Assembly (NCBI GenBank): GCA_963663225.1
Contig: OY760142.1
Location: 2,944,001-3,008,000, forward strand
From: Nitrospirota bacterium
Lineage (GTDB): Bacteria; Nitrospirota; UBA9217
Reading direction: 5' to 3'
Length of the DNA: 64,000 nucleotides
Positions 32,092-60,111 of the stretch are shown here, one piece after another (the first letter of the stretch is position 1; each line of letters starts with the position of its first letter). The notes below the pieces were generated by a model that saw only the letters and a list, made by a program, of their open reading frames with translations, did not search any database and was not told the DNA's origin. The translations under genes and the position numbers were made by a program.

Positions 32092-33525
32092 CTATTTTTT
32101 CACATAAGGCTCATACTCCAGATAGAGTTTTCTCAGAGCAAATACGTATTTAAAACCCCTGCTGATAATGGTAAACATTTCCTTGAAGGGGTACCGTACC
32201 CTCTTGAGCCGGAGAGGATTGGCCCGGAAGGCAATGCCGTACAGCTCTGAGAACCGCTGATAAAACTTCCGGATGGGAAGCCGTGTCGGAAGAATCGTGT
32301 GCATGCAGTCGTAATAAACGTAGGGATCTTTGATGTAGTCATTTTTATGCTTTTCCCACAGTTCTGTGCCCGGTGACGGGGAAAACACGGTGAACGTCAC
32401 TTCAGCGGGGCACACTTTTTTGACTTCTTCTTTCAGATTTGCAAATTCTTCCTCGCCGAAATCCGGATCGAGCATAAAGCTCGCGTGCAGCGTCAAATCC
32501 AGCTCCCGGAGAATTTCGACCGCTCTCCTGTTTTTATCGACCGTCGTGCGTTTGTTCAACTTCTGCAATCGCTCTCCGGTCATGGCTTCAAGCCCGACAT
32601 ACACCATGCTGAGGCCTGCCTGCTTCCAAATTTTGAAAACCTCCGGGTTCCGTACAATGCTGTCGCTTCGTGCCCAGCTGATGAATTTCTTTTTTATTCC
32701 CCGGTCGATGAGCAGCTGGGCTATCTTGGTCATGCGGTCGGCGTTGATAAAGTTTTCGTCGTCCACAAAATAGATATGATCTTCCTGCAACCTTGCTATT
32801 TCATCGACGACGTCTTCCGGGGTCCTTTGGAGATACTGGCCCCGCATGATGTGATGGACCACACAAAACGAACAGTTAAACGGGCAGCCGTTCGACGTGC
32901 GGATCGTTGCCGTTCGGGGGAAAATAGTTTCCACCTTTTTTTCGTCGCTCGCCGTCCAGACGCAAAAATATTTGGACCGGTCGACAAGCTCCCGCCTCGG
33001 CAGTGGAATGTCCTCTATCTGAGGATATTTGGGCGGCAGTGCTTTCGCCTTTTCGGGGAAATCAGGGTCTTTGGGAGATAATATCGCATCCCCGGTGCTG
33101 AGAGGAAGCCCTTGTGTAAACCGATTTACAATCTCTTTGAAAGCGGTGCCGCCTTCTCCCCGCACAATGATATCGATGGCATCAATTCCGTAATCCCCCG
33201 GGAGGACGGTCGCGTGTATGCCGCCCACGACGTTGATGACGGCAGGTGCATGTTTCTTTGCAAATTCGGCAAGCTCCCGTACAAGCGCGGCCTGGCTGCT
33301 GAACCCGGTATATCCCACAATATCGGGTTTCATGGCCAGCAGTCTTTTTTTGAATGCATCGAAAGGGTCCTGCTCAAAGCTCAGGTCCATGATGACAACT
33401 TCATGCTCGCGGGGAATGCCGCCAGCCACAATTTCCAGCTCAAGGGGTTCCAGGTGCATGAAATAGTCCATCAAAAATTTGGACAAGGCCAGGGGCGGAT
33501 ACGGTTTAATCAGTAGAATACGCAT
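32092..33525 (-). CDS. B12-binding radical SAM protein (class B methylase-like, resembles HpnR clade)
   Basis: LEPL; GGIHAT and VRGEG cobalamin-domain motifs; SNGCPFNCSFC; H..LPTRLP...FY; GGAGGT RBS. Confidence 0.85.
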   Translation of the reverse strand: MRILLIKPYPPLALSKFLMDYFMHLEPLELEIVAGGIPREHEVVIMDLSFEQDPFDAFKKRLLAMKPDIVGYTGFSSQAALVRELAEFAKKHAPAVINVVGGIHATVLPGDYGIDAIDIIVRGEGGTAFKEIVNRFTQGLPLSTGDAILSPKDPDFPEKAKALPPKYPQIEDIPLPRRELVDRSKYFCVWTASDEKKVETIFPRTATIRTSNGCPFNCSFCVVHHIMRGQYLQRTPEDVVDEIARLQEDHIYFVDDENFINADRMTKIAQLLIDRGIKKKFISWARSDSIVRNPEVFKIWKQAGLSMVYVGLEAMTGERLQKLNKRTTVDKNRRAVEILRELDLTLHASFMLDPDFGEEEFANLKEEVKKVCPAEVTFTVFSPSPGTELWEKHKNDYIKDPYVYYDCMHTILPTRLPIRKFYQRFSELYGIAFRANPLRLKRVRYPFKEMFTIISRGFKYVFALRKLYLEYEPYVKK

Positions 33526-33553
33526 TGAATACCTCCAAAATTCTCTTTCATTC

Positions 33554-33582
33554 ATTATTCTAAGGCGGCCGATGCCTGTCAA
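33554..33582 (-). promoter_or_regulatory. possible internal promoter for the 32092-33525 gene
   Basis: TTGACA-N17-AATAAT (within TAGAATAAT). Confidence 0.45.
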
Positions 33583-33616
33583 GCCGCCTGGTGTTCAGCC
33601 GGTTGGCCCACCGTTA

Positions 33617-35053
33617 TCAGCGGGAGCGTTTTATTTTTCCGCTCGGTGTTTTTTCCAGACAGTCTACGAAAGAAAAATCTTTCGGCACCTTATACGGTGC
33701 CAGGTGATGGTAACAGAAACGCTTCAGATCGTCAACTAAAGCATCAGAACGGACCATATCTTTTGCAACAACATCAGCAGCCGGAAGTTGCCCATAATGG
33801 GGATGTGGCACGCCATAGACAAAAGACTCCTTTACCTGCGGATGTTGATTGATGACCGCTTCCACTTCCTGTGCAAAAATTTTCATCCCGGCAAAATTAA
33901 TTATATCTTTCTGTCTCCCGACAATGAAGAGAAAACCGTCCGGATCCATTCGGCCGAGATCTCCTGTTTTAAACCAGCCGTCGGCAAGAATGTCTTCTCT
34001 GGGCTGCCAGGGAGAATAGTAGGCGTCAAGCATCCCCTTGCCTTTGATGCGAATTTCGCCGATACCGTTTGCATCTTTGTTATCAAGGGCGATCTGGTAA
34101 TCCGGCAATGGTTTGCCCACTGAACCGCGTTTGTTTTTTCCGCCGCCCAGGCGAATAAACGGCAAACCGACTTCTATGATGCCGTAGGCTTCGGACAACT
34201 CCAGGCCGAATTTCGCCGTAAAGTCCTCGGCAACCGCGTCGGGCAGCTTCATGGTCGTGGATATTGCCAGGCGGATACGGCTCAGGGTTTCCGGTGCAAG
34301 CTGGTCTGTTTTTGACAAGAGGCTGTAGTGAACAGGCGATGCATAGATCAGGGTGCCCTGGTGACTGGTTATCCCTTCGATAAATGGTTCCGGGAAAAGA
34401 TGGCCGCAGAGCACCAGCGTTGCACCGCGCCGCAGGAACAAAAGGATCGTAACGACAAAATGATAACTCATGGAAAGGACCCAGAGAATGACGTCCGCTG
34501 AAGATATGCACAATCCCTTGTCTGCGGCATCGGTCCTCTCGATGATCGCCTCATGTGACAGCACGACACCCTTGCTTATTCCCGTGGTACCGGAGGTAAA
34601 GCGGATGAACGCGGGATTGAGCCTGAAATATTCCGGCTTCGGGCGTTCTCGTATGGACCTTTTTACAATAATAAGCTGTTTTTTTCTAAGGCCGGGTGAG
34701 GCAAGGACATCGCGATATCCCCCGGTCCGCAATTTCGGCTCCGCGATAAGAAAATCCACGTCGATTCTGTCGACGACCGTTTCAATCTCTTCCGGAGTTT
34801 GCTCCGGAGAAACGGGTACCAGGACAGCTGAGAGCGACAAAACAGCAAGACTGGTGATGATATAATCAATGCTGTCTTCACACAGAAAACCGACTCGGTG
34901 AAGACGGGCAATTCCTTTTCGCCGCATGGCTTCCGCAGTCTGCTCCACGGCAGTGATAAGTTGCCCGTAGGTTACCCGGTCCTCACCCTCGATGACCGCG
35001 GTCTTGTCAAGCTGTGATTCCGCTTCTGTTTTTATGCTCTCGAAAATATTCAT
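33617..35053 (-). CDS. AMP-dependent acyl-CoA/acyl-ACP synthetase (class I adenylate-forming)
   Basis: FTSGTTG.SKG, EAYG..E, GWFKTGDLG, GR.KD.I and KTPSGKI motifs. Confidence 0.92.
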   Translation of the reverse strand: MNIFESIKTEAESQLDKTAVIEGEDRVTYGQLITAVEQTAEAMRRKGIARLHRVGFLCEDSIDYIITSLAVLSLSAVLVPVSPEQTPEEIETVVDRIDVDFLIAEPKLRTGGYRDVLASPGLRKKQLIIVKRSIRERPKPEYFRLNPAFIRFTSGTTGISKGVVLSHEAIIERTDAADKGLCISSADVILWVLSMSYHFVVTILLFLRRGATLVLCGHLFPEPFIEGITSHQGTLIYASPVHYSLLSKTDQLAPETLSRIRLAISTTMKLPDAVAEDFTAKFGLELSEAYGIIEVGLPFIRLGGGKNKRGSVGKPLPDYQIALDNKDANGIGEIRIKGKGMLDAYYSPWQPREDILADGWFKTGDLGRMDPDGFLFIVGRQKDIINFAGMKIFAQEVEAVINQHPQVKESFVYGVPHPHYGQLPAADVVAKDMVRSDALVDDLKRFCYHHLAPYKVPKDFSFVDCLEKTPSGKIKRSR

Positions 35054-35092
35054 AAACGTTTTCTGTATTGCCGAAGCAACGATGTCAATGGT

Positions 35093-36298
35093 TCAGCGTG
35101 TAGACATCGGATACCTGCCGTTTTTGCTGAAATACGCCGCCGCCGTTCCAGCCTGTTCACCGAGCGCAATACAGGTGCCCATGACCCGGGTGGAGCCGAG
35201 CGCTGCATGCGAAACGGATATACAGCGTCCGGCGCACAGCAGATTTTTGAACCCTTTGACCGTCATGCAGCGAAATGGAATCTCATAATAATCGCCCTGC
35301 GGCACATACCGGTATGTTGTGCCGTGCTCGCTGGTCCATTCTTCGATGGGCCAGGAATTCTTGACGACGCCGTCAGTAAATTTTTTTGCCGTCAGCACGT
35401 CCTCTTCGGTAAGGATATAGTCTCCCTGAACCCGCCTTCCTTCCCGTTCTAAAATTTTGGGCGCTGTTTCAGCAATGCCGGCATTTTTGAATGGCGGAAG
35501 GACGCCCGCCAGATAAGCAATCATTGCGGACGCTTCTTTTTTCGCCCATTCGGTCCGATCCGAGTCTCCTCCGCTCTCCAGGCTCAGTTTGCAATAGCCT
35601 TCCTCGGGAGTCATTCCAAGGGTAAAGGTCGTGAACCGTGACAATGGCGACAGTTCTTTTTGCTGAACGGCTCGTGCAAGATAGTACGGCACTTTTACCG
35701 ACAGTGCTTCGTCCGCGTTTTTCAGCCCTTTAATATGGATCGTAAAACCGGCCAGCTGCCGCTCGTGAGGAGGAGCCAGTTCAAAATCCGCGCCGGCGGC
35801 GGCAGCAATGGTTCCGTCGCCGGTACAATCAATAACGGCCTGCGCGCTCACAACCATCGTCCGGTCAATGCCGCGCACGGTCACTGCCTTGACTCTTTGA
35901 TCGTCGGCATTCACCCCGACAGCGGCATGCTGCAACAAGAGAATGATTTTTTTCTCCGCCGCGCAAAGCCATGCAAGAGTGTTTGAAAGTGTTTTTCTCG
36001 AATACGGCAGAACAAACACCTGGCCGATTTTCCGCACGGAAGATCCCGGCGCGTTTTTTTTTAAAAGCATTTCCAGTTCACGAACGAACCCTGCGTTTAA
36101 CGTTTCCAGCGGGAAATCTTTTCCATTCAAATACAGCCCGCAGATATATTGAAACATGCCTGCGCACCCGATGCCGCCAAGATATGATTCAGACTCGACA
36201 AGCATCGTATCCGCACCTGACCGGGCTGCGGCTATTGCAGCGGCGGTTCCCGCGACGCCACCGCCGACCACCAGCACGTCACAGGACAGGTCGTTCAT
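35093..36298 (-). CDS. FAD-dependent oxidoreductase (FAD_oxidored family)
   Basis: VVGGGVAG.AAAIAAAR.G, IDCTGDG, RE.RR..G.Y.L and NLL.AGRCIS....A..S.RVM motifs. Confidence 0.88.
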   Translation of the reverse strand: MNDLSCDVLVVGGGVAGTAAAIAAARSGADTMLVESESYLGGIGCAGMFQYICGLYLNGKDFPLETLNAGFVRELEMLLKKNAPGSSVRKIGQVFVLPYSRKTLSNTLAWLCAAEKKIILLLQHAAVGVNADDQRVKAVTVRGIDRTMVVSAQAVIDCTGDGTIAAAAGADFELAPPHERQLAGFTIHIKGLKNADEALSVKVPYYLARAVQQKELSPLSRFTTFTLGMTPEEGYCKLSLESGGDSDRTEWAKKEASAMIAYLAGVLPPFKNAGIAETAPKILEREGRRVQGDYILTEEDVLTAKKFTDGVVKNSWPIEEWTSEHGTTYRYVPQGDYYEIPFRCMTVKGFKNLLCAGRCISVSHAALGSTRVMGTCIALGEQAGTAAAYFSKNGRYPMSTR

Positions 36299-37614
36299 GA
36301 CGGGGACGCTCCAAGTTCCAATCGTATGCCTGTTTCCAGCGCAGAAATTTCCTCGTCGGTCAGCAGACCATCGAGATACGAAATCGTCAGATTCAGCCGG
36401 CCATTGTAGTAATTACTGAAAAACCCGATGCCGGGGGGTACCGGAACACGCGGCATGTGAAAAAAATTACTGATGTGTCTGCCCATAAATTCATCCGACA
36501 GATAAGCGCTTTTTCCCAGATGCGAGAAGGCAAACGTTGCCATTCTGCCTTTCATCGGAAGATACAGCAGTTTCGCGAGCACCGGCAGCGGTGCTATGCG
36601 GGTCAGCAAACTGGCTTCGGATAAATCTTTCGGAAAACCGGATTTCACCTGATCGTACATTTGCCGTTTGAATGCCGTCAGAAGGACATTTCTGTCTGCG
36701 GCATCCGCAAGCGAAATCTGAAAAAACAGAAAGGAAATATGGTTGAAAAAGATTTCCTGCAACGGTTCTTTGCCCGGCCTCAAGTCCGTCGACACCGGGA
36801 TCACATAACTGGTTCCATCATTGGACGTCGCCGAGAAAAGCCCATGGATGGTGCGGGTTATGGCCGCCAGAAAAAACGGGGATTCCATGAGGTATCCGGC
36901 CTCATGGTACGCCCTGGCATATATTTCCGACGTTTCCTGTTCGGTGAACGCGAGCAGACGGTATGTAAAACCGCGTCCTCGCCCTTCTGGAAACGGAAAA
37001 GCCTTCGGAGTGGATTCCGACAACGCAATAATCCTGCGGTTCACGCTTCTGCCGGCCAGAAACTTATTCTTCCATTGTGTCAATGCCATTGAAGAAGTAA
37101 AGCGTATATCACCGGACAGATCGTGATTGTCCCTGTTTTGCTGAAGCAGATTAAGGAATGCTTCGGCGCCACGGGCGTCAAACAGCCGATGATCGAAAGT
37201 CATAGCAAGGGCGCTTTGTGTGGTCCCATTAGTAAACAGGTGGAACGCGATATGCTCCTTGTCGTCCCTGAATTTGCTGTTGGCGTTTTCCTGCAGACGG
37301 GAGAATACGGCATCCAGAGAAAAACCGCCATCGATCCGGGTCACTTTTAACGTTACATCACGATTTGCCGAAGAGGGTATTTTCCAGTAAGGGGTAAGTT
37401 TGAAGTCCCGGGCAACAGTCCCCTCCAGCACGGGGAACCGTTTTAAAAAACGGTTCACACGGCCGTGCAGGTCGGCTTCGTCGAGATGTCCGTCTAGGAC
37501 AAGAACGATCTGGGACATGTTCCCCGAACTGGTCAGGGACTTCATCATATAGTCGAGCGTGTTGATTGCCCAGTCATGACCGGATAAATAGCGCTTGCGA
37601 TTAGATACCAGCAT
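36295..37614 (-). CDS. stand-alone condensation-domain / CAT-fold acyltransferase-like protein
   Basis: FDHRLFDARG (HxxxDxxG variant of HHxxxDG); PV..DLR and FS.LG motifs; next to an ACP. Confidence 0.7.
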   Translation of the reverse strand: MLVSNRKRYLSGHDWAINTLDYMMKSLTSSGNMSQIVLVLDGHLDEADLHGRVNRFLKRFPVLEGTVARDFKLTPYWKIPSSANRDVTLKVTRIDGGFSLDAVFSRLQENANSKFRDDKEHIAFHLFTNGTTQSALAMTFDHRLFDARGAEAFLNLLQQNRDNHDLSGDIRFTSSMALTQWKNKFLAGRSVNRRIIALSESTPKAFPFPEGRGRGFTYRLLAFTEQETSEIYARAYHEAGYLMESPFFLAAITRTIHGLFSATSNDGTSYVIPVSTDLRPGKEPLQEIFFNHISFLFFQISLADAADRNVLLTAFKRQMYDQVKSGFPKDLSEASLLTRIAPLPVLAKLLYLPMKGRMATFAFSHLGKSAYLSDEFMGRHISNFFHMPRVPVPPGIGFFSNYYNGRLNLTISYLDGLLTDEEISALETGIRLELGASPS

Positions 37615-37626
37615 AATAAACCAGCG

Positions 37627-37869
37627 TTACAGCATTCTCTTGATGAAGGATGCCAGGCTGTGAATGGTTTCGAAGTCCTTTTTTGTCAGATCGGAAGTGA
37701 TTAATTGAAGTTTGAATGTTTTTTCCACAAGCACAAGAATCTCGACAAACCCCAAAGAATCAATTCCCAATTCATGAAACGGCTTGTCCGGCCTGATCGC
37801 AGACTCTTCCCTGCCGGTAATCAGCGAAATGCCTTTGATTAATTTGTCTTCAATTTCCTGTATTGTCAT
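37627..37869 (-). CDS. acyl carrier protein (ACP3)
   Basis: LGIDSLG phosphopantetheine motif; 80 aa. Confidence 0.9.
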   Translation of the reverse strand: MTIQEIEDKLIKGISLITGREESAIRPDKPFHELGIDSLGFVEILVLVEKTFKLQLITSDLTKKDFETIHSLASFIKRML

Positions 37870-37935: not shown

Positions 37936-39003
37936 TCATAGTTTTTTCAAGTACACTGTTGCTTTATCACCCGAGCAGTTGCATCCTATGCACCGGATCG
38001 ATTCAATCAGGGCGGTGCCGGATTCGGTCAAAAGATTGAGCTCTAAAGGGTTATCCAGAACCGGTGCCGGATAATAAACTTGTTTTTTTAGCATCAGAGC
38101 GCCGGCCGCAATATTGAAGGCGCTGCCAGTCATGACGCTGCCGAAAAGCGGAGCGTATGCCGCAGCCGGAGTGTCTGGTGACAGTAAGGGACGATACGCC
38201 GATTCATCCTGCATCATGCCGTCGGCATCTATGATAATAAGGTCATCAGGGTCCTGCCGTCCGTAGTCGTCGTGAAGCCGCAGTGCATCGACAGAACAAT
38301 ACCTGTTCTGCGTTTGTAGTTCGCTTGCCAGCAGAAAAACAGCCCCTTCCCCCGGGACCTGGCAGGTCGGATTGAAAACAAATGGTTTTATTTTGCCGTC
38401 CGGCGCATTATGCAGTTTTTGTTCTGACACATATCCCAGAACATCTCCGTACTGGTCCACACCGCCCACAAGGACGTAATCGCAACGTTTTTGAAGAAGC
38501 CACGTCTGGGCAAGCTGAAGGGCCGACTGAAATGAAAAGCGGAATTGCGTTACGGTCAGGGTCGGCCCCTGAATGTCCAGGGATGATGCTATATAGGAAG
38601 CTGCGGCATTATGCACGGAGTTTGAAAACGTGGTCGGCGACACCGCTGCATCGCCGAAGTCCAGGATGCCGTCAAGAAAATCGAACGTCGTTACATGAGC
38701 GCCAAAAGCCGTCGCCAGGATAATGCCCAGTTTTTTTCCGGTACAGTCAATTCCGCTGTCGGATATCGCGTCTGCCGCTGCAAGGACAGCCATCTTGCTC
38801 AGCTTGTCGGCCCGCCTGATTTTCTTCAACAGGGTCTTGTCCGGGACATCATCGAAGCTGACCAGATAGGCAAATCGTTTCCGGTCGGCATGTGAAGGCA
38901 CGGGTATTTCAAGAGGAGGCAGCCAGCCTGTTTGCAGGGCATTATCAAACCGGGCAATACCCAAACCCCGGGAAAAAATCATGCCTATTCCCGCTATGTT
39001 CAT
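37936..39003 (-). CDS. ketosynthase chain-length-factor-like subunit (ApeC-like)
   Basis: SPT.FSNSVHNA motif; KS N-terminal fold lacking the catalytic Cys and His residues. Confidence 0.82.
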   Translation of the reverse strand: MNIAGIGMIFSRGLGIARFDNALQTGWLPPLEIPVPSHADRKRFAYLVSFDDVPDKTLLKKIRRADKLSKMAVLAAADAISDSGIDCTGKKLGIILATAFGAHVTTFDFLDGILDFGDAAVSPTTFSNSVHNAAASYIASSLDIQGPTLTVTQFRFSFQSALQLAQTWLLQKRCDYVLVGGVDQYGDVLGYVSEQKLHNAPDGKIKPFVFNPTCQVPGEGAVFLLASELQTQNRYCSVDALRLHDDYGRQDPDDLIIIDADGMMQDESAYRPLLSPDTPAAAYAPLFGSVMTGSAFNIAAGALMLKKQVYYPAPVLDNPLELNLLTESGTALIESIRCIGCNCSGDKATVYLKKL

Positions 39004-40178
39004 GCGCCCCCCTTTCTGCCGATTACAATGGCTGCATTGTTGCCGCCGAACGCAAGAGAGGTCGATACAGCATAGGTCCCGCTGATTTGTGTTTTTTCTT
39101 TGATGGGAGCGATCGGAATTGCCTCGTCACGGTTCTGGAAACCCACGCTGGCAGGCAACCATCCATCCCTGAGGCCGGCAGCAGTAAACACCGCTTCTAC
39201 TCCCCCTGCCGCACCGAGGGTGTGTCCGGTGAACCCTTTTGTTGAAAGCATTGCGAGGTCCGCACCGAAAATGTTTGCGAGGACTTTTCCTTCAACAAGG
39301 TCATTGTCCTGCGTCCCGGTGCCGTGCGCATTTACAAAAGCAACTTCAGCCGGTGTTATGCCGGCCTCCTCCAATGCCATGCGGATTGATGCTCTCAGAC
39401 CTGTCCCTTCAGGACTCGGCGCCGTAAGATGATATGCGTCTCCAAAAGATCCATATCCCGCAAGAAAAAGTTCTGATGTGTTCCTTCTTTTTTCCCTTAT
39501 GGATTTTTTTTCGAGGACCATGACTCCCGCGCCTTCGCCCAGATTAAGCCCTTTTCGATCTCGGTCAAAAGGGGCGCATAAATTCATATTGAGAATCCCG
39601 AGAGAGCCGAAGCCGCAGTATGGAATGTGGCTCAACTCGTCCGCTCCTCCGGCAATGGCAATGTCACACAGATCGTTTTTGATCCACGACAATGCCACGC
39701 CGATGGCATCCGTTCCTGATGAACACGCATTTACAACCGTAAGGTTCGGGCCTTTTGCCCCTAATTTTCTTGCAATGGAATCCGACAGGTTTCCTTTCAG
39801 GAAGCGGTCCACTGCCATGAGAGGCGCAGTGCCTTTCGAGCGGTATGTGGTATAGAACCGCAGATCGTTTAGCTGACTTGCAACGGTCGTGCCCATGCAG
39901 ACCCCGACCCGATACGGTGTAAGATCGGCCAAATTTGCTTCACGAAGCGCCTGATCCACGGCAATCAACGCCAAGCTGAGGGTCCTTTGGCCTTCACGAG
40001 AATACGCTTGCGGAATGTCCGGAACTTCAAACACAGGATATTGTAGTACGGACGGAAAAAGAGTTACCGGTCCTGCGTTTCTTCGTCCTGACTCAAAAGA
40101 ATCAAGCGTATCGCGGATATCCTTCCCTGCTGCCGATATCACTCCGAGTCCGGTTATGCGTATGTCAGACTTGGTCAT
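39000..40178 (-). CDS. beta-ketoacyl-ACP synthase (KS3, ApeO/FabF-like)
   Basis: NACSSG (Cys), NAHGTGT (His), KG.TGHTLG (His) and AFGGNN motifs. Confidence 0.92.
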   Translation of the reverse strand: MTKSDIRITGLGVISAAGKDIRDTLDSFESGRRNAGPVTLFPSVLQYPVFEVPDIPQAYSREGQRTLSLALIAVDQALREANLADLTPYRVGVCMGTTVASQLNDLRFYTTYRSKGTAPLMAVDRFLKGNLSDSIARKLGAKGPNLTVVNACSSGTDAIGVALSWIKNDLCDIAIAGGADELSHIPYCGFGSLGILNMNLCAPFDRDRKGLNLGEGAGVMVLEKKSIREKRRNTSELFLAGYGSFGDAYHLTAPSPEGTGLRASIRMALEEAGITPAEVAFVNAHGTGTQDNDLVEGKVLANIFGADLAMLSTKGFTGHTLGAAGGVEAVFTAAGLRDGWLPASVGFQNRDEAIPIAPIKEKTQISGTYAVSTSLAFGGNNAAIVIGRKGGA

Positions 40179-46894: not shown

Positions 46895-47047
46895 AAGATT
46901 TTCTCACCCGTGCAAAAAAGGTGACCCGTTGAAAACGGATTACAGCAGTCAAAATAACCCTTTGCGGCAGGGTTGACATTCGTCGTGCAGGCAGCGGCGT
47001 TTTTTGGGAGGCGGACCCGCTTTCAGTGCACGAAAAAAAATGGAAAT

Positions 47048-52768: not shown

Positions 52769-54252
52769 TATGCCGCCGCCTTGCCGTCGCGCCAGACCTT
52801 CAATTCCCCGTGCGCAATGAGTGTGTTTTCCTTTTTTATCTCTCCGCGAATAATGCCGAAATCACCCAGTTTCGCGACTTTATAAATCGTGATCCGGAGA
52901 ATATCTCCGACCCGAGCGCTGCCGAGAATTTCAAATTTTTTTATTCCGAGCAGATATCCTTCCTGCTGCGGATTGCGGCTGCCGACTTCACGAAAACCTT
53001 CCATGGCGGCTAGCGCCTGGGAAATAATTTCAGGATAAGACGCCTCATCAAGTTTTCCGTTTTCCGATACAAAAACCATATCCTGCCGAACGGTCATTTC
53101 CGAGATGGACTCCCGCTCCCGCAGTTCAAGCAGGCGGTCGATAAGAAGCATGGGGGATTTATGGGGGACGACCCGTGCGGCATCAACAGGCAGAAACATA
53201 ATATCATCACGGCGGTCAAGATTATGCCAGCAGAGAGGGTCTGACGCCAGGTAGTCACCCGTCAGTTGGTAGGCCGCACCCCGGCAACCGTAGCACTCGT
53301 CTATCTTGGCACATTCTCCGCACGGCCCCTTTATCAGTTCTTTGTATCGTTTCAGGTCCTGCACAACTTCACTGTCATGCAGAATGTCTTTCAACCGTTG
53401 TTTTCTTACGTTTCCGATGGGAAAGGTAATCCCCACGCAGGGTTGCACGTATCCTTCTGAATTTACCGCACACGAGAACTGATGGCGGAGGCATTCACCT
53501 CCCACCAAAGGCGGCTTGGGATCCCAATGATAGCCGTATTTCGTTCTATCAATTTCCGATATGCGATTAAAGAATTCCTGCACAGTCCGGGAATCGACTT
53601 CCAGCATATTGTGTTCCCGGGCTCCACCCTGGGGGGTCATCATCTCAAAATACGGCATGATATGCTGGTCCCGAAGCCATTCCCACATGCGGGCCAATTC
53701 ATCGATATTCTGCTGGCAGATGATCGTACTGATCCCCATGGGATGTTCCGGCGACGGGTATCCCGCGCTCTTTAAGTTTTTCAAAGCTTCCTGTATCTGG
53801 GTATAAGCGCCTTTTCGGCCGGAAAGTGTGTCCTGGAGACTTTCGTCGAAGGTGTTCATTTTCAGGATCACCCGGGCATTGTTATCGTAAAAAAATTGCG
53901 CCATGGCAGGGGTGAGGCTTGTTCCGTTGGTAAATATCTCGATATCCATGCCCAGGCCCCTGATAAAGCGGATCATTTCCATAATATGGGGATACAGCAT
54001 GGGTTCGCCGCCGAGAATGATGATTTTGCGGGCAGATAGCTCTTTTGCCTGTGTAATGACGTCTTTGAATTCTTCTTTGGTCAATTCGTCTCGCCGACGG
54101 GCAGTGTCCGAAGCATAGCAATAGATGCAGCGGAAATTGCAGCTCTGATTAAACTCAATTTCCATCGAAAGGAGTCTGCCGTCACGCACGGCATCCGCAA
54201 TCTCCTGCTGAGAGAATTCAGCACCGTAGATTCTGCTTTGACAACTAGTCAT
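52768..54252 (-). CDS. radical SAM/SPASM protein fused to C-terminal ApeP-like hotdog dehydratase
   Basis: CNFRCIYC; SPASM C...C......G.V.PC...C..C.....C.GCR..AY...DP.C; then PH..PM.LID...E..SQA.AA..G...G.LLG. Confidence 0.85.
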   Translation of the reverse strand: MTSCQSRIYGAEFSQQEIADAVRDGRLLSMEIEFNQSCNFRCIYCYASDTARRRDELTKEEFKDVITQAKELSARKIIILGGEPMLYPHIMEMIRFIRGLGMDIEIFTNGTSLTPAMAQFFYDNNARVILKMNTFDESLQDTLSGRKGAYTQIQEALKNLKSAGYPSPEHPMGISTIICQQNIDELARMWEWLRDQHIMPYFEMMTPQGGAREHNMLEVDSRTVQEFFNRISEIDRTKYGYHWDPKPPLVGGECLRHQFSCAVNSEGYVQPCVGITFPIGNVRKQRLKDILHDSEVVQDLKRYKELIKGPCGECAKIDECYGCRGAAYQLTGDYLASDPLCWHNLDRRDDIMFLPVDAARVVPHKSPMLLIDRLLELRERESISEMTVRQDMVFVSENGKLDEASYPEIISQALAAMEGFREVGSRNPQQEGYLLGIKKFEILGSARVGDILRITIYKVAKLGDFGIIRGEIKKENTLIAHGELKVWRDGKAAA

Positions 54253-55553
54253 ATGCTCTTTCTGTTGTCCACAAAACGGACTAACTTACGGGAATTACCT
54301 GAAAAAATCTGGTTTTTTATGTTTTCTTCACTAGTAAGGATCACTTCCGGCCGCACCCGCAAATGGCCTTGCAATTTATCCATAATCATTTCCGCAGTGC
54401 AGGCGGCGTCCTGCACGGAAACAAAAACCTTTATCACATCCGAAAGATTATAGTCGCTTGAAGCAACGATATAATAACCGCTTATTTCCGGCAGAGCATC
54501 GAGAACATCGTAGAAAGAATTCGGATATAGCGTCGTACCCCGAAATTTGAGCATTTGTCTGTTTCTGCCCAAAATGGGGCCAAGCCGCGGCGATTTTCTT
54601 CCGCAGGAACACGGTTCGTCTACCAGAAAACTGATGTCTCCGGTTCTGAACCTCAATAGCGGCATCCCTTCAATGGCCAGAGGAGTGATCACCACCTCAC
54701 CGATTTCCCCTGGAGGGAGAACTTTTCCCTGTTCAGTAACGATTTCGACAATGGCAAGATCGGGATGAAGATGGCCTCCCTGCTGTGCAGTGCATTCACA
54801 GAATGAGGTAATGCATTCTGAAGAAGCATAGGTAGAATAAATTCTTGCACCCCATACTTCTTCAAGGGTTTTTCCGATTCTGAGAAAAGAAAGATGGCGG
54901 TCCCGGATCGGTTCACCGATACAGATCAGTTTGTTCACCCCTGCAGAAGCAGGATCAATATTCTGGGATTGCAAAAATCGTCCCAGTTTGAGCAAGAAAG
55001 TCGGGACTCCGACGATGACCGTAGGTTTCAGCCGTTGAATTATTTCGAGATGGCTCTCTACACTGCTCAAACCATTTCTAATGGCAGCAGCTCCTAGACT
55101 TCTGGATCCTGCATAGTAAGCGAGCCCCGCGATAAAACAGCGGTCAAGAGTGCACGTCAGCAGCACGACATCGTCATGCGTCATCCCGCAGCCTGCGAAG
55201 GAAATTACCTCATTATATGCCAGACGCTGGAGATCATTTTCAGTGAACATAATCGGCGTCGGCCTGCCCATGGTCCCTGAAGAAAGAACAATATCCACGA
55301 TTTCAGATTGGGGAACTGCACGAAAATCATTATTTTGACTTCCGAAGGTAGCTTTCTCGGTAAGCGGAAAGCTGTCAAGAGAAGGAATGTTTTTACCTGA
55401 GACATCTATTCCCTGCTCGCGGAATATTTTGCGATAATACGGAGAAGAAGATGAGAGATATCGAAGGTGTGTGTGCAAAAGCGATTCCTGCACCTTTTTG
55501 ATCTCATCGGGTTTTGAAAATTCCAGATTGCGATTATGATCAAATGCTGTCAT
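54249..55553 (-). CDS. phenylacetate-CoA ligase (PaaK) family adenylating enzyme
   Basis: SSGT.G.P, STYASSE, PLLRFRTGD, C.CGR and K.RG...YP motifs. Confidence 0.88.
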   Translation of the reverse strand: MTAFDHNRNLEFSKPDEIKKVQESLLHTHLRYLSSSSPYYRKIFREQGIDVSGKNIPSLDSFPLTEKATFGSQNNDFRAVPQSEIVDIVLSSGTMGRPTPIMFTENDLQRLAYNEVISFAGCGMTHDDVVLLTCTLDRCFIAGLAYYAGSRSLGAAAIRNGLSSVESHLEIIQRLKPTVIVGVPTFLLKLGRFLQSQNIDPASAGVNKLICIGEPIRDRHLSFLRIGKTLEEVWGARIYSTYASSECITSFCECTAQQGGHLHPDLAIVEIVTEQGKVLPPGEIGEVVITPLAIEGMPLLRFRTGDISFLVDEPCSCGRKSPRLGPILGRNRQMLKFRGTTLYPNSFYDVLDALPEISGYYIVASSDYNLSDVIKVFVSVQDAACTAEMIMDKLQGHLRVRPEVILTSEENIKNQIFSGNSRKLVRFVDNRKSI

Positions 55554-56305
55554 ACCCTATTCTCCATCTTAGCCAGTTCGCCGTCAAGAATTTTCCACAC
55601 TCTGTTTTTAAATGCGAACGCGGTCAATTCTTTATAGTCATTCCAGGGAATTGCCGCAAGCTGGCGTATCCGGACCGTTCCCGGCCGCAGCAGGGAAGAT
55701 CCCTTTGGAAAAATTTTCTCCGTCCCGGAGATGCAGAGCGGAACAACGGGCGTCCTTGTCTCAAGAGCCAGCCGGAACGCTGCGCCGTGAAAGTTTCCCA
55801 TTTCCCCTGTGGTTGAACGCGTTCCCTCCGGAAAAAAAATGATGGAAACCCCTTCCGACAGCAATCGTGTGGCTTTTTGCATAAACTGGTCGCGGGGCAT
55901 CATGCGTATGTTAAGATATCCTGAGAACCTTGCATAAATGCCCAGAACGGGTATTCTAAACGGCCATACATTTACAATCTGGACGACTTCATGGGGCAGG
56001 ACTCCGATAAGAAAAGCGTCCACCGCAGATCGGTGATTGCACACAAAAATATATGGTTCCTGCGGCCCCTTCTGAGCAGGCCGTTCATACCGAATTCTAA
56101 TAAAAGGAAACGGCAAGGCCATTATCGTCTTTCCATAAAGACTAATGGAGCGACGAAAATATTGTAGTGTTTTACGCGGCGGCAGAAAAAACAACCCTAA
56201 CAAAGTAACTGCAACCGTCAGCACGGAAATGACAATTGCTGAGAACAGGAAAAACAGCACGTAAAAGTACAGATTAAAGAGATACAATCCTAAACGATAC
56301 AGCAT
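55550..56305 (-). CDS. PlsC-type acyl-glycerol-3-phosphate acyltransferase (ApeD-like)
   Basis: NHRSAVD and FPEGTRS motifs. Confidence 0.9.
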   Translation of the reverse strand: MLYRLGLYLFNLYFYVLFFLFSAIVISVLTVAVTLLGLFFLPPRKTLQYFRRSISLYGKTIMALPFPFIRIRYERPAQKGPQEPYIFVCNHRSAVDAFLIGVLPHEVVQIVNVWPFRIPVLGIYARFSGYLNIRMMPRDQFMQKATRLLSEGVSIIFFPEGTRSTTGEMGNFHGAAFRLALETRTPVVPLCISGTEKIFPKGSSLLRPGTVRIRQLAAIPWNDYKELTAFAFKNRVWKILDGELAKMENRV

Positions 56306-56310
56306 CGTTC

Positions 56311-56574
56311 TCAACTCTTTTTGATGTCCTCATTTTTGATCGAGGAAATAAACTGATAGATATCCTGCAAGGTTCTGATGTCCCTGATCCCTTCTTCATT
56401 TCTGATCTTGACGCCGAAACTGTTTTGGAGCGCGACCACAAGGTCCACGATATCGAGGCTGTCAAGCCCGAGATCCGTAAAGATATGGGCCTGAGGGACC
56501 AAGCGCTCTTTTTCTATTTCGAAAGATTCTTCAAACACCTTGTTGGTTTTTTCTATAATTTCCTGTTCAGTCAT
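56311..56574 (-). CDS. acyl carrier protein (ACP1, ApeF-like)
   Basis: DLGLDSLD.VDL; GGAGG RBS before ATG 56574. Confidence 0.93.
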   Translation of the reverse strand: MTEQEIIEKTNKVFEESFEIEKERLVPQAHIFTDLGLDSLDIVDLVVALQNSFGVKIRNEEGIRDIRTLQDIYQFISSIKNEDIKKS

Positions 56575-56605
56575 ACAATCCTCCACCGTAGCTGCCGCAG
56601 ATACG

Positions 56606-57832
56606 TCAGATTTTTTTACAAACCAGTGCCGCATTGATGCCGCCAAAGGCAAAACCGTTTTTGAGGACGGTCGTTATCTGCTTTTTGAGCGGCTGCATTA
56701 CATGTTGAATTCCTTCACAATCAGCACTCACATGCTCCAAATGCAGCGTTGGATAAATTATTCCGTGTTCCATCATCTTGAGAGAAGCCGCTAGTTCGAT
56801 TGCTCCCGATGCGCCAAGTGTATGGCCGATGTAGCCCTTTAATCCGCTCACGGGGACGGAAGCACCGAAAATGTCTCTGATCGACTCCGCTTCTTCCTGG
56901 TCTCCCTGGATTGTCGCCGTGGCATGCGCGTTGATATAATCGATGTCGCGCGGCTGCAACCCGGCGTCCTCAATCGCCTGCTTCATGCAAATGACCATGG
57001 ATTCCTTGTTGGACTGGCTGACATGGAGCCCGTTTGCGGTTGTGCTGTAACCGACTACTTCGGCATAAATTTTAGCGTTCCTTCTGAGTGCACGGTCATA
57101 ATCCTCAAGGATCACGATTCCGCTTCCTTCACCGCACACAAGCCCATCGCGGTCTCTATCAAAAGGCCGCGGGGTTTTCTGCGGCGAATCATTGTACTTT
57201 GTTGACGTGGCAAAAAGAATATCGAATGATCCCGTTACCGTAGGATGCAGTTCTTCCGCTCCCCCGCAAAGAAGAAGGTCCTGCCTGCCGAGCCTGATAA
57301 GATCGTACCCGGTGCCGATGGCATGGAGTGCGGAGGCGCAAGCGGCAGCCGGGGCGATGATCGATCCGTTTAACCCCAGATATTGGGCGACATTCACGGC
57401 CGCGGTGTGCGACATGCACTGGAAAAACATTGTGGAATTCAGCTGGCCGAGATCCTTGTTTGGCAGTATGATTTCAAAAGCATCGTTGATACTTTTCGCG
57501 CTGCCCATCGTCGAACCGATAACGCAGCCGGTCCGCCACAAGTCTTCATCGGCAAGGGAAATACCCGCATCAGACAATGCCTCGTCCGCTGCCTGGGCGG
57601 CAAAAATACTCATTCGGCCCATGGAACGGCGTTTTTGGCGAGGAATGCGTTTCTCATCGCGTATTTCAGCCGGCGCGCCCACCAGGCTTTGCAGGCCGAT
57701 GTAACGGTCCCATCCTTCCATCCGCTGCACGGCGCTCTGTCCGGATTCTATGCCTTTCATGAGCGCCGGCACGCCGTTGCCGAAGGGAGAGACTACTCCC
57801 AGGCCTGTTATGACAACTCGTTTCAAAGTCAT
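56606..57832 (-). CDS. beta-ketoacyl-ACP synthase (KS1, ApeR/FabF-like)
   Basis: RVVITGLG, AACASA, NAHAT.T, KGY.GHTLGA.G and FAFGG.N motifs. Confidence 0.93.
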   Translation of the reverse strand: MTLKRVVITGLGVVSPFGNGVPALMKGIESGQSAVQRMEGWDRYIGLQSLVGAPAEIRDEKRIPRQKRRSMGRMSIFAAQAADEALSDAGISLADEDLWRTGCVIGSTMGSAKSINDAFEIILPNKDLGQLNSTMFFQCMSHTAAVNVAQYLGLNGSIIAPAAACASALHAIGTGYDLIRLGRQDLLLCGGAEELHPTVTGSFDILFATSTKYNDSPQKTPRPFDRDRDGLVCGEGSGIVILEDYDRALRRNAKIYAEVVGYSTTANGLHVSQSNKESMVICMKQAIEDAGLQPRDIDYINAHATATIQGDQEEAESIRDIFGASVPVSGLKGYIGHTLGASGAIELAASLKMMEHGIIYPTLHLEHVSADCEGIQHVMQPLKKQITTVLKNGFAFGGINAALVCKKI

Positions 57833-59319
57833 ACTGTCTGTTTTAACAGTTTTCCGTACTGTCCCTTTCCCATTACTGCCCGACCGACAATGAGTGATGA
57901 CATCATTGCACCAATTATACCTGGCAGCAGAGCACTTTGGCCGGCCGCAAACAGATTGTGAAGCGGAAGCTTTCCGATAAGATTGAACTGTCCCATTTTT
58001 TGTTTAACGCCGTAAGCACTTCCATCCGGACTGTTAAGATACTCTTTAAACGTCAGCATGGACGCTGAATCGAGAATCTCAAGGCTTTCACCGTATGCAG
58101 GAAAAACCCTCCGCAGATGTTCACGAATTGCATCAGTACGCTGCTGTTTGTAGTCAAGGTATTCCTGGGGCCTTCTTCCTCTCCTGGATTCCCGCCAGCG
58201 CTCTACCTCGTTGGGAAAGGAAGGCTCCAGAATACAGATACCCTGTCTACCGTCTTCCTGAACCGGCATTTTAATAATGACCATGGCAGGGTCGCCCTGA
58301 TAGGATGGATCAAGAAGAAAGTTTACATCATCCATGGGAAAGATGGATGAAATCCCGGCCTCCGGATACGGATCGCGCATCCCCTGTTTCAGCATGGCAA
58401 AAGCAGTAAAAATACCGACAGATGATTCGAACGATGCAATACGGTTGGCGAACGCTTTTGAGTATTGTTTTTGCGGCAAAATAGGCAATATTTCCTTTGG
58501 ATGGATGGTAAACACGCAGGAATCAGCCGTAATCTCTTCTCCAGTGGTCAGGACAAAGCGACCTACTTTATTGTCATGAATGTCCGTCAGTTCCCGGATA
58601 CTGGTCCCGCAGCGGATCTCGACGTCATAGGCGTCAAGTTTGGTGCGAAAAGCATTAATAAAGGCGTCTCCGCCGTTCTTCACATAGGCAAGGGATTCAT
58701 AGAAGCTGAGTATCATTCTGCAGTGGTTGGCAAATGATATTTCATCCGGTCTGACGCCGTAACACATGACGTAACCGGAGAGCAGCCCCTGGAGAAGAAC
58801 ATTGGAGGTAAAATCCTTCAGAACAGCATCAAGCGAGATATAATCCTCCTCCAGATTGGGAGGAGTGATGATATTATTGTGAATATTGAGCGCCGGGGTC
58901 CGCTGGCAGACCGACTGCACCTTTTCAAAATAGCGGTCGATAGTGCTCACCTCACCGGGAAAGTATTCCTTGAATTGTTTCTTTACATTCTCAACCCCGC
59001 TGGGATGCTCGAACTGCCGGCCCGAAGCTTCGAAAATAAACCTGTTCTTATACAAGTCTCCTACAAAAACAGGTTCTATAAAATCACGGATATCAAAGAG
59101 CGTCAAAATGTCGGAAAGAATTCCTCCGGCATGAAGCCCACCGGTAAAGTGAAAACCGGTATCGAAGGCAATGCCTTTTCTGGTAAATCTGGACAAAGAA
59201 CCGCCGATATGCTGCCCCTTCTCAATCAGCAGCACCTTATGCCCATTCATGGCAAGCAGCAAAGACATCGTCAAACCGCTGATACCGCTTCCCACCACAA
59301 TATCGTTATATTTTTTCAT
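57829..59319 (-). CDS. phytoene-desaturase-like FAD oxidoreductase (CrtI/RetSat superfamily)
   Basis: VVGSGISG, GG....F.R.G..FDTG.H, GSAYG and L..AGQ....PG..G motifs. Confidence 0.85.
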   Translation of the reverse strand: MKKYNDIVVGSGISGLTMSLLLAMNGHKVLLIEKGQHIGGSLSRFTRKGIAFDTGFHFTGGLHAGGILSDILTLFDIRDFIEPVFVGDLYKNRFIFEASGRQFEHPSGVENVKKQFKEYFPGEVSTIDRYFEKVQSVCQRTPALNIHNNIITPPNLEEDYISLDAVLKDFTSNVLLQGLLSGYVMCYGVRPDEISFANHCRMILSFYESLAYVKNGGDAFINAFRTKLDAYDVEIRCGTSIRELTDIHDNKVGRFVLTTGEEITADSCVFTIHPKEILPILPQKQYSKAFANRIASFESSVGIFTAFAMLKQGMRDPYPEAGISSIFPMDDVNFLLDPSYQGDPAMVIIKMPVQEDGRQGICILEPSFPNEVERWRESRRGRRPQEYLDYKQQRTDAIREHLRRVFPAYGESLEILDSASMLTFKEYLNSPDGSAYGVKQKMGQFNLIGKLPLHNLFAAGQSALLPGIIGAMMSSLIVGRAVMGKGQYGKLLKQTV

Positions 59320-59376
59320 TATCACCAGTTGATGACGGCAGCAACAATCATCCGAAAACGAAAAAAAACAGTCGTA

Positions 59377-60111
59377 CTACATCGCCAGTCCGCCATTGAC
59401 GCCGATAACCTGACCATGGATATACATATTCTCCTCGGTACAGAGAAAATGAACAACAGATGCGATATCGTCGACCTTGCCAACGCGGTTAAGGGGAATC
59501 AACGGGAGGACCTGCTCTTTCGGAATGTCTTTAGTCATTTCCGTTTCGATAAAACCGGGAGCAACTACGTTTACAAAGATGTTTTTCCTGCCGACTTCGC
59601 GGGCCAGCGCTTTTGCCGCCCCGATTAACCCGGCCTTAGAAGCGGAATAGTTTACCTGTCCTGCCTGGCCGACCTGGCCTGATACGGAAGAAATCACTAC
59701 GATTCTTCCTCGTTTTGCCTTGAGCATGGAAAACACCACGGCACGGGTGGTGTTAAAAAAACCGTTGAGGTTAGTTGTGACCACTGAATCCCATTCTTCT
59801 TTTGACATCCACATCAGGAGATTGTCACGGGAAATGCCCGAATTGTAGACAAAAACATCAGGTGACGTGGTTTCCAACCGGGCGCCTAACGCAGCCTCAG
59901 TTTCTTCAAAACTGGACACATCAAAAGAAAAAAGCTCACAGGCGGCACCTGTCGATTCTATCTCCGCTTTAACAGAACGGGCCGCTTCATGATTGCTTTT
60001 ATACGTAAGCCAAATGGAAAAACCGGCTTTAGCCAGCTTCACCGCAATGGCCCGCCCTATCCCGCGGCTGCCGCCTATTATCAATGCAATTTTCTTTGAC
60101 TGGGTTTTCAT
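59377..60111 (-). CDS. fabG: 3-oxoacyl-ACP reductase (cluster-specific FabG/ApeQ)
   Basis: GGSRGIG, GQVNYSASK (YxxxK) and VN.VAPGFI.T.M motifs. Confidence 0.92.
   Translation of the reverse strand: MKTQSKKIALIIGGSRGIGRAIAVKLAKAGFSIWLTYKSNHEAARSVKAEIESTGAACELFSFDVSSFEETEAALGARLETTSPDVFVYNSGISRDNLLMWMSKEEWDSVVTTNLNGFFNTTRAVVFSMLKAKRGRIVVISSVSGQVGQAGQVNYSASKAGLIGAAKALAREVGRKNIFVNVVAPGFIETEMTKDIPKEQVLPLIPLNRVGKVDDIASVVHFLCTEENMYIHGQVIGVNGGLAM

Follow-up and report, generated by a model that had tools for sequence, protein, structure and literature searches.

Candidate lipid operon of the 'ladderane-type' family, rich in radical-SAM genes, in a Nitrospirota bacterium

The contig OY760142.1 of a Nitrospirota bacterium (assembly GCA_963663225.1) carries, within the 64,000-nucleotide stretch analysed here (positions 2,944,001 to 3,008,000, hereafter the window), a cluster in which genes for radical S-adenosylmethionine (SAM) enzymes are mixed with genes resembling those of aryl-polyene synthesis. 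One of them belongs to the TIGR04072 family, historically named rSAM_ladder_B12 after the ladderane lipids. Which kind of lipid does such a cluster make, and is this copy exceptional? We consider it probable (about two chances in three) that its 27 genes form one operon, that this operon encodes a specialised lipid pathway dependent on acyl carrier proteins (ACPs) and akin to type II polyketide and fatty acid synthases (PKS and FAS), with an architecture of the aryl-polyene/flexirubin class, and that it is an ordinary member of the 'ladderane-type' clusters centred on TIGR04072. Nothing about the cluster is unusual, as its family was already published in 2009 and is very common.

Gene content and spread of the cluster

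Twenty-seven open reading frames (ORFs), numbered 01 to 27 in transcription order (Table 1; the numbers also designate the proteins), were found in the ORF listing of the window from 60162 to 32092, all on the minus strand. With the longest ORFs taken, neighbouring genes overlap at 18 of the 26 junctions and are separated by 12-153 bp at the other 8. A Pfam family was matched at E<=0.001 by 25 of the 27 ORFs. A previous reading of the same DNA, made without database searches (hereafter the sequence-only reading), had described 25 co-oriented, mostly overlapping or abutting genes, from the stop of the last gene (32092) to the ATG at 60111 of gene 01. Orientation and compact arrangement were confirmed; the count was not, the genes of its own list adding up to 26 and the deacetylase gene (40216-41250) having been omitted. 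The domains that it had named were found by Pfam and NCBIfam: FabG, three ketosynthases (KS), two proteins resembling chain-length factors (CLF), three ACPs, PlsC, a family 2 glycosyltransferase (GT2), ligases and others.

The proposal that these genes include an aryl-polyene chassis is borne out by comparison with the list of ape core genes given in the legend of Fig. 1 of Grammbitter et al. (2020). The window encodes, as do ape clusters, a KS and a KS/CLF pair, at least two ACPs, a FabG-type ketoreductase, a thioesterase, a PlsC-type and further acyltransferases, a GT2 glycosyltransferase, LolA-like and DUF3261 proteins, an exporter of the resistance-nodulation-division (RND) type that is only partially HpnN/HAE3-like here, and a candidate two-subunit hot-dog dehydratase, both subunits of which match below cut-off. 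Beyond this core, it carries four radical-SAM genes, two flavoprotein genes, a second KS/CLF pair, a third ACP, a deacetylase and a PapA5-like acyltransferase and, unlike in ape clusters, its ApeP-like subunit is fused to a radical-SAM enzyme with a SPASM domain. Pfam detected no ApeB-like class I methyltransferase, and no dialkylresorcinol or tyrosine ammonia-lyase gene, among the 27 ORFs. For genes 01, 06 and 08, the flexirubin models FlxB, FlxY and LolA2_flexi, respectively, ranked first or second among the named models, and in all three cases the equivalog cut-off was missed (Table 1).

The TIGR04072 model ('lipid biosynthesis B12-binding/radical SAM protein'), which had been suggested as a check on 43594-44964, was matched by gene 16 with 622.6 bits (cut-off 360) over positions 1-442 of 443. 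Gene 16 is the sole match over cut-off in the genome, a single contig of 3,255,001 bases, the next best scoring 102 bits. Clusters containing such a gene are here called 'ladderane-type': Rattray (2009, PMC2649909) described Kuenenia stuttgartiensis kuste3335-3352, termed its synteny with a locus of Desulfotalea psychrophila 'striking', and reported clusters of the same kind in Geobacter and Pelobacter carbinolicus. In the accessible sections of Javidpour (2016), kuste3335-3352 comprises a glycosyltransferase, a phytoene desaturase, FabZ, an ACP, FabG, two adjacent radical-SAM proteins, a phenylacetyl-CoA ligase, FabFs including a non-canonical one, an ACP and a deacetylase-like protein. The window shares with these clusters a TIGR04072 gene with an adjoining radical-SAM gene, phytoene-desaturase-like, phenylacetyl-CoA-ligase-like, oxidoreductase, glycosyltransferase and deacetylase-like genes, several ACPs, and several FabF paralogues, some of them non-catalytic; it is also collinear with Geobacteraceae and Pelobacteraceae records. 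The additional genes thus fit the gene lists of kuste3335-3352 and of Desulfotalea, Geobacter and Pelobacter, and the sequence-only reading was right to call them ladderane candidates in that sense. The likeness to Kuenenia rests on the gene lists of these papers and on the NCBIfam model, not on sequence alignment, and the class I SAM methyltransferases kuste3338 and kuste3347 have no counterpart in the window. In the available part of a Cariaco Basin study, clusters labelled 'ladderane' by antiSMASH are found, and expressed, in many non-anammox phyla.

Relatives were sought in one genome per species: 484 stretches matched, 380 of them encoding a relative, and 80 loci were kept. Of 8000 candidates scored, 2746 are related to the TIGR04072 protein at E<=1e-30, and the top 120 are 69-100% identical to it. 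Synteny was analysed by tblastn of the 27 window proteins against the kept loci, 45 of which extend for 9.9 kb or more to each side of the anchor (full loci). Genes 07-19 were found in the exact order of the window in 37 of these 45 full loci, spread over records titled Nitrospirota, Geobacterales and relatives in Verrucomicrobiota/Planctomycetota, and each of genes 07-10, 12-14, 17 and 18 in 42. Genes 20-25 were present in 22-36 full loci (gene 20 in 29) and the tail genes 26 and 27, both carried by the window, in 9 and 18, respectively. Two Elusimicrobia loci had only genes 15 and 16 on that strand, and one Planctomycetia locus only gene 16. The titles of the locus records name Nitrospirota/Nitrospiraceae (the nearest at 97%), Geobacterales/Geobacteraceae/Pelobacteraceae, Thermodesulfovibrionia, Elusimicrobia, Verrucomicrobiota, Kiritimatiellales, Lentisphaerales, Sedimentisphaerales and others. 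The most conserved proteins were ACP2 (median identity 78%) then gene 15 (76.7%, 70 loci); the value for the TIGR04072 protein was 64.9%.

Because the 5' genes lie outside the 10-kb flank, gene 02 was searched separately in five genomes. A strong orthologue was found in four of them, at an equivalent relative position in genomes G001, G002 and G004, and none in the Elusimicrobia genome. Upstream regions were compared in three genomes: genes 01-06 were collinear in two, and in the third (Sedimentisphaerales) genes 01-05 were collinear and genes 25 and 26 were relocated upstream. In conclusion, since the relatives are many, alike and collinear, the window holds a typical copy of a conserved cross-phylum superoperon.

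Within the phylum, 301 genomes were sampled, and 64 of them have TIGR04072 over cut-off. In this sample, a second group of TIGR04072-like paralogues is found in many members of the family to which the window's organism belongs; these paralogues score about 290-340 bits, under the cut-off of 360; the window's genome has no match in that range.

Radical-SAM enzymes and synthase proteins

The radical-SAM motif CxxxCxxC is present in all four radical-SAM proteins (07, 15, 16 and 27), in gene 07 as CNFRCIYC. The sequence-only reading had counted three B12-radical SAM enzymes among them. Genes 16 and 27 do combine the motif with an over-cut-off B12-binding domain, the signature of class B, whereas gene 15 falls just under the B12-binding cut-off (Table 1) and has AprD4 as its best fold match.

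The nearest solved relative of gene 16 is TsrM (PDB 6wte), aligned over both the B12 and the radical-SAM domains (E 2.4e-34), and the NCBIfam models that follow TIGR04072 are BzaD (213.9 bits, cut-off 450) and TsrM (160.3 bits, cut-off 500). TsrM and BzaD are C-methyltransferases of the cobalamin radical-SAM family, acting on aromatic sp2 carbons. Arg69 and Glu273 of TsrM, which we take to be functional residues and the latter presumably a ligand of the cluster, align in the gene 16 family with an invariant Arg (R68) and an invariant Val, respectively.

A different relationship was observed for gene 15. Its structural model (predicted local distance difference test, pLDDT, 82.3) gave AprD4 as best Foldseek match (PDB 6fd2; E 3.9e-15, template modelling (TM) score 0.74), followed by MgmA and TsrM; AprD4 was also among its top sequence matches (E 6.6e-06), with an identity of only 18%. 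AprD4 is a radical-SAM diol dehydratase that has a B12-like domain and is not known to need cobalamin. By its predicted structure, gene 15 is closer to AprD4 than to a cobalamin methylase, and it differs from AprD4 in being coupled or fused to a TIGR04072 protein or to KS-CLF proteins.

This coupling is conserved. Genes 15 and 16 overlap by ATGA at 44961-44964, and among the 68 loci that have more than 1.5 kb of upstream DNA, 63 have the two genes no more than 200 bp apart. The two genes form one ORF of 903 aa in an Elusimicrobia record (L051:8648-11359), and four further protein clusters of 877 aa are fusions of the same kind. In four other protein clusters of about 1250 aa (among P0123-P0130), a radical-SAM domain resembling gene 15 is combined with a KS and a further KS-like domain; this radical-SAM domain is 30-33% identical to gene 15, by far the best match among the radical-SAM proteins of the window. 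These fusions of KS-CLF with radical-SAM domains mirror the gene order KS_b-CLF_b-15-16 of the window. Apparent fusions of CLF_b to gene 15 in three loci were rejected, owing to an in-frame stop (L020) or to junk N-termini (L048 and L072).

Gene 27 scored 235 bits with the HpnR model, for a cut-off of 650, and was rejected on this score as an HpnR hopanoid C-3 methylase. In other phyla, orthologues of gene 27 form part of the cluster and stand between genes 18 and 19 (L069, L072, L073 and L076).

The window also contains a hopanoid locus (6431-14225, minus strand), which encodes a PNP_UDP_1 protein (6431-7123), a Caroten_synth-family protein (7174-8022), a Radical_SAM+DUF3463 protein (8036-9034) whose architecture we take to be HpnH-like, a squalene-hopene cyclase (9207-11279; 498 and 401 bits) and an 891-aa MMPL protein (11550-14225). 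Because of this locus, the source organism probably makes hopanoids, as judged from gene content, which bears on the HpnR-like, below-cut-off gene 27. Elsewhere in the genome (G000:C1:288220-289050, locus L008), a TIGR04072-like radical-SAM stretch of 68 bits lies inside a 2749-aa open frame; so large a protein would be an unusual setting for a class-B radical-SAM domain.

Among the synthase proteins, alignment showed the Cys-His-His active site in KS_a, KS_b and KS_c. The Cys is absent from both CLF-like proteins, and gene 22 lacks both His as well. All three ACPs carry the DSL motif. The C-terminal 150 residues or so of gene 07 matched the ApeP-like family in 16 of 17 orthologues (best E 9.5e-08), the protein of the window scoring 19.7-23.2 bits for a Pfam cut-off of 27. 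The same region gave the only fabZ match within the window (E 1.6e-5, 25.9 bits), and the His of the FabZ-type 'PH..P.LL' motif is retained in 14 of the 17 orthologues. Gene 11, reported previously as an ApeI-like dehydratase, is under the cut-off of that family in the window (Table 1); however, an ApeI-like match at E<=0.01 recurs in all 16 proteins examined, of which one is from the window and 15 are orthologues, with a FabA match in 12 of the 16. Given the ApeP-like and fabZ matches in gene 07 and the ApeI-like matches in gene 11, a two-subunit dehydratase of the aryl-polyene type seems to be present, one subunit being fused to the SPASM radical-SAM enzyme.

No enoyl reductase was detected by Pfam in the 27 ORFs. 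Housekeeping fabZ (209 bits, G000:C1:2348097) and fabH (445 bits), both over cut-off, are located elsewhere in the genome; therefore, the cluster is not the housekeeping FAS, and the pathway is a specialised one.

Gene 24 (439 aa) matched nothing in Pfam at E<=0.1 and nothing in the PDB at E<=10 in sequence searches. Its structural model (pLDDT 88.7, predicted TM score 0.90) gave 297 PDB matches at E<=0.001 with Foldseek, and all 42 among the matches listed belong to the condensation/acyltransferase superfamily, including the condensation domain of SrfA-C (4.8e-21), PapA5 (PDB 1q9j; 2.5e-17) and TRI3 (TM score 0.73). His142 and Asp146 of its FDHxxxDxxG motif are invariant across 21 orthologues, and some of its ESM Atlas neighbours have Condensation or WS_DGAT_C domains. 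The modelled structure of gene 24 is thus of the two-lobed condensation/PapA5 type with HxxxD, in agreement with the condensation-like protein of the sequence-only reading. PapA5 and the stand-alone condensation domains of nonribosomal peptide synthetases have the same fold and HxxxD, whereas gene 24 lacks a sequence-level match to Pfam Condensation.

The putative exporter, gene 09, had been called MMPL-like. It has no Pfam match to MMPL, nor to any other family at E<=0.001 (SecD_SecF_C appears only at E 0.0047); what remains of the claim is a set of partial HpnN and HAE3 matches (Table 1). PDB sequence searches with genes 02 and 25, ACP2 and CLF_c returned generic relatives only.

Candidate pathway and rival explanations

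The order of events that we propose for this pathway is as follows. A carboxylic-acid starter would be activated by the PaaK/FlxY-like ligase (06) and perhaps also by the FadD-like ligase (26), and chains would be extended on the three ACPs by KS_a and the two KS/CLF pairs. FabG (01) would reduce the beta-keto groups, and gene 11 together with the C-terminal domain of gene 07 would dehydrate the products; as the cluster has no gene for an enoyl reductase, the chains would keep their double bonds, unless saturation is adjusted by the flavoproteins 02 and 25. The block KS_b/CLF_b-15-16 could be an in-line tailoring module, in which gene 16 would most likely catalyse a cobalamin-dependent C-methylation of the chain or of the head group, its substrate presumably being the ACP-bound chain. 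Gene 15, like the SPASM domain of gene 07, may perform further radical chemistry on ACP-bound intermediates, and gene 27 may be an additional methylase.

Anchoring and export can be proposed by analogy with the ape clusters of Escherichia coli CFT073 and Xenorhabdus doucetiae, which make aryl-polyene lipids: ApeD and ApeJ hang two polyketide-like chains on a glycerol-phosphate-GalNAc backbone, and outward movement by ApeM, ApeL and ApeN, the last being a DUF3261 protein described as LolB-like, has been proposed (bioRxiv 2020.12.19.423268). By this analogy, the PlsC protein (05, ApeD-like), the GT2 protein (17, ApeJ-like), the LpxL-like protein (18), the deacetylase and the PapA5-like protein would build the chains onto a glycerophospho-(amino)sugar anchor. 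The deacetylase (20) would free the sugar amine, and gene 24, which directly follows the gene of ACP3 (23), would off-load a chain onto an amine or a hydroxyl. The RND-like protein (09, ApeM-like), LolA (08) and the DUF3261 protein (10) would then carry the product to the outer membrane. We infer, as did the sequence-only reading, an outer-membrane glycolipid with a radically modified polyene as the product.

Several points weigh against this proposal. Literature searches returned no paper giving a product for any member of the family, and for this reason every chemical step above is inferred, from observed gene identities, motifs, synteny and fusions. In the available parts of Javidpour (2016) and Dietl (2023), Kuenenia homologues expressed in E. 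coli produced no new lipid, and Table 3 of the former lists the radical-SAM proteins kuste3342 and kuste3343 as undetected. Methylation by gene 16 is argued from homology, and its mechanism may differ from that of TsrM because the Glu that we take to be a TsrM ligand is replaced by an invariant Val. No gene for starter synthesis was found in the cluster, the only hint of an aryl starter being the PaaK/FlxY-like ligase. In addition, the ApeI, ApeP, FlxB, FlxY, LolA2_flexi, HpnN and HpnR assignments are all under the curated cut-offs.

A bolder version of the pathway, which we put forward tentatively and with more doubt than belief, is that the radical-SAM enzymes (15, 16 and the fused SPASM protein 07) work in line with chain extension by a type II synthase that includes KS_b/CLF_b and change the carbon skeleton of ACP-bound intermediates, giving a class of outer-membrane lipid so far unseen, in anaerobes of at least five phyla. 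The changes would be iterative C-methylation, radical dehydration or rearrangement, or formation of C-C rings or cross-links. A possible functional analogy is provided by jawsamycin: the available text on Jaw5 (PMC13459092) describes a radical-SAM enzyme that modifies an enoyl intermediate in line with chain extension by an iterative PKS, whereas the window encodes discrete type II PKS/FAS-like proteins.

An otherwise ordinary pigment lipid of the aryl-polyene/flexirubin type would require less of the radical-SAM enzymes, which would only replace ApeB and oxygen-dependent tailoring, for example by methylating the aryl ring. The near-cut-off similarities to FlxB, FlxY and LolA2 and the lack of an ApeB-like methyltransferase in the 27 ORFs agree with it, as does the action on aromatic carbons of TsrM and BzaD, the closest characterised relatives of gene 16. 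Yet simple head-group methylation would not call for as many as four radical-SAM enzymes and two flavoproteins, nor for a second KS/CLF pair and radical-SAM-KS-CLF fusions, and we regard a plain pigment as unlikely. Rattray's proposal that polyunsaturated fatty acids or hydrocarbons are made anaerobically by such a cluster, with flavoproteins and radical-SAM enzymes desaturating ordinary chains that stay in bulk membrane lipids, would account for the unusual polyunsaturated hydrocarbons of D. psychrophila, a holder of a syntenic cluster (Rattray 2009, PMC2649909, available text), and for CrtD-like and FAD_oxidored flavoproteins encoded without an enoyl reductase. It would not account for the LolA, DUF3261, RND-like, GT2, deacetylase and three acyltransferase genes, which are kept with the synthase genes in the full loci at the frequencies given above; because of this conservation, an anchored, exported lipid fits better than bulk fatty acids. 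Moreover, Kuenenia CrtI homologues had no CrtI activity in E. coli and no polyunsaturated products were observed there, according to the accessible sections of Javidpour (2016) and Dietl (2023). A bulk polyunsaturate route therefore seems quite improbable.

Ladderanes proper (concatenated cyclobutane lipids), although suggested by the historic name of TIGR04072, by the over-cut-off score of gene 16 and by the gene content shared with kuste3335-3352, are an unlikely product, to which we give hardly any credence. Rattray (2009, PMC2649909), in the text available, reports ladderanes as not detected in the syntenic holder D. psychrophila. The cluster described as unique to ladderane producers is another one, kuste3603-3608 ('Cluster I'), which in the available part of Granatino (2026) comprises amxACP, amxFabZ, an amxFabF2/FabFmut heterodimer, a PDH-like protein and a B12 radical-SAM enzyme. 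Compared by description, the window shares with Cluster I the logic of a KS/CLF-like heterodimer, an ACP, a class-B radical-SAM enzyme and a flavoprotein of the PDH-like type, but its cluster has no stand-alone FabZ and carries anchor and export genes, which are absent from Cluster I. No match to HZS_alpha (PF18582), the domain of the alpha subunit of the anammox marker hydrazine synthase, was found in the genome, which is 98.99% complete; this domain matches Bacteroides too, and is thus no strict marker. Finally, the TIGR04072-positive genomes of the phylum sample belong to a phylum that the papers cited here do not count among the ladderane producers.

The cluster, for which we favour a specialised, exported lipid, belongs to one of the commonest families of orphan lipid clusters in anaerobic bacteria. 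The identity of its product would settle what genome-mining tools mislabel as 'ladderane', part of the outer-membrane content of the holders, and the chemistry of the conserved 15/16 pair. If radical-SAM enzymes do act in line with the synthase, solving the product in a culturable holder would explain the homologous anammox genes. The window does not add a new kind of system, and its copy is no more testable than those long known in cultured Geobacter or Desulfotalea. It adds experimental handles, newly seen here: the fused radical-SAM/hot-dog protein (07), the natural fusions of 15 with 16 and of radical-SAM with KS-CLF domains, the split between an AprD4-like 15 and a TsrM-like 16, and the PapA5-like candidate off-loader (24).

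Gene list, borders and neighbouring genes

Table 1. Genes of the cluster, in transcription order, and the promoter candidate. Scores are in bits, with the cut-off of the model in brackets where given.
Feature	Coordinates	Strand	Assignment	Evidence
Promoter candidate	60225..60253	-	Sigma-70-like, TTGACA-N17-TAGTAT	10/12 consensus matches; in 216-bp spacer after pheT
01	59377..60162	-	FabG-type 3-oxoacyl-ACP reductase (ApeQ/FlxB-like ketoreductase); likely start ATG 60111	adh_short 177; FabG NF004200 278 (273); FlxB 295.2 (340)
02	57829..59325	-	CrtD/phytoene-desaturase-like flavoprotein	Amino_oxidase 46.8; NAD_binding_8; CrtD 96.6, far under cut-off (549.7)
03	56606..57832	-	Ketosynthase KS_a	Pfam KS N- and C-terminal domains; NF006587 431 (470)
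04	56311..56652	-	ACP1	PP-binding; NF003757 71.5 (65), residues 27-107
05	55550..56314	-	PlsC-type acyltransferase	PF01553 81.2
06	54249..55553	-	PaaK/FlxY-like adenylating ligase	AMP-binding and AMP-binding_C_2; FlxY 464.3 (520); PaaK 170
07	52768..54252	-	Radical SAM/SPASM protein with C-terminal ApeP/FabZ-like hot-dog domain (about residues 345-494)	Radical_SAM 85.9; SPASM 32.8
08	52082..52768	-	LolA-like lipid carrier	LolA 69.4, over cut-off; LolA2_flexi 112 (125)
09	49702..52089	-	RND/HpnN-like membrane exporter, 795 aa	Partial HpnN 73.5 and HAE3 57.3, far below cut-offs
10	49040..49747	-	DUF3261 protein	DUF3261 31.3 (22.3)
11	48642..49040	-	ApeI/FabA-like hot-dog dehydratase subunit	ApeI-like 21.9 (28.5)
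12	48163..48645	-	4HBT/YbgC-type thioesterase	4HBT_2 69.2
13	47048..48208	-	Ketosynthase KS_b	Pfam; active-site alignment
14	46220..46894	-	CLF_b, short (224-aa) CLF-like KS homologue	ketoacyl-synt 32.7
15	44961..46223	-	Radical-SAM protein with B12-domain-like N-terminus	Motif CKFNCFPC; B12-binding 30.9 (32.1)
16	43594..44964	-	TIGR04072 protein	B12-binding 67.4; TIGR04072, see text
17	42405..43742	-	GT2 glycosyltransferase with DUF2062	Glycos_transf_2 58.2; DUF2062 47; PpgS-like 81.6, below cut-off
18	41525..42430	-	LpxL-family lysophospholipid/lipid A-type acyltransferase	Lip_A_acyltrans 53.5
19	41210..41494	-	ACP2	NF006617 76.8 (70)
20	40216..41250	-	Polysaccharide deacetylase-family protein	Polysacc_deac_1 59
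21	39000..40178	-	Ketosynthase KS_c	NF006618 292.3 (407)
22	37936..39003	-	CLF-like partner of KS_c (CLF_c)	Pfam; active-site alignment
23	37627..37869	-	ACP3	PP-binding 43.7
24	36295..37614	-	Stand-alone condensation-domain/PapA5-like acyltransferase	Predicted fold; HxxxD
25	35093..36298	-	FAD_oxidored flavoprotein	PF12831 267.3; weak geranylgeranyl-reductase-family match 47.4
26	33617..35053	-	FadD/MenE-like AMP-ligase, variable tail gene	AMP-binding 183.3
27	32092..33582	-	Class-B radical-SAM protein, HpnR/BchE-like, under both cut-offs	B12-binding 57.4; Radical_SAM 74.6

The true start of gene 04 is probably the internal Met27. The promoter that the sequence-only reading had placed before the operon is present as a sequence (60253-60225); however, the same scan found 17 such matches for 16.2 expected from shuffled sequences, which is chance level, so that this candidate rests on its position. 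A search of sequencing runs found no run of a holder recorded as RNA; two sludge runs classed as 'RNA? (probably DNA)' contain only contig pieces of a relative, 90-99% alike.

The widest junction gap (153 bp) separates KS_b from CLF_b. This region (46895-47047), the sole sizeable gap of the operon, has a stretch containing TTGAC and, on the coding strand, two hairpins resembling terminators; an internal attenuator or promoter is conceivable here, as is chance.

The cluster is preceded by pheT (60379-62076) and pheS and followed by a rhomboid gene (31228-31929), and its borders show no sharp break in GC content. PheT has 565 aa and PheS 521 aa, with a class II core at residues 243-513 (60379-63739, minus strand); judged by these lengths, the phenylalanyl-tRNA synthetase is presumably of the archaeal or short type and not of the one common in bacteria.

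Beside the hopanoid locus, genes on the plus strand (14558-18538) encode MlaC, MlaA/VacJ and an AsmA/YhdP-like protein, a third lipid-transport system within 64 kb; a VacJ-like gene is listed inside the Kuenenia cluster in the available text of Rattray (2009, PMC2649909). The stretch 22000-28000 of the window has a low GC content (0.38-0.43, compared with 0.47-0.53 around it) and encodes a flavodoxin, an HD-GYP-type response regulator, a PilZ protein and a 7-bladed lactonase-like protein.

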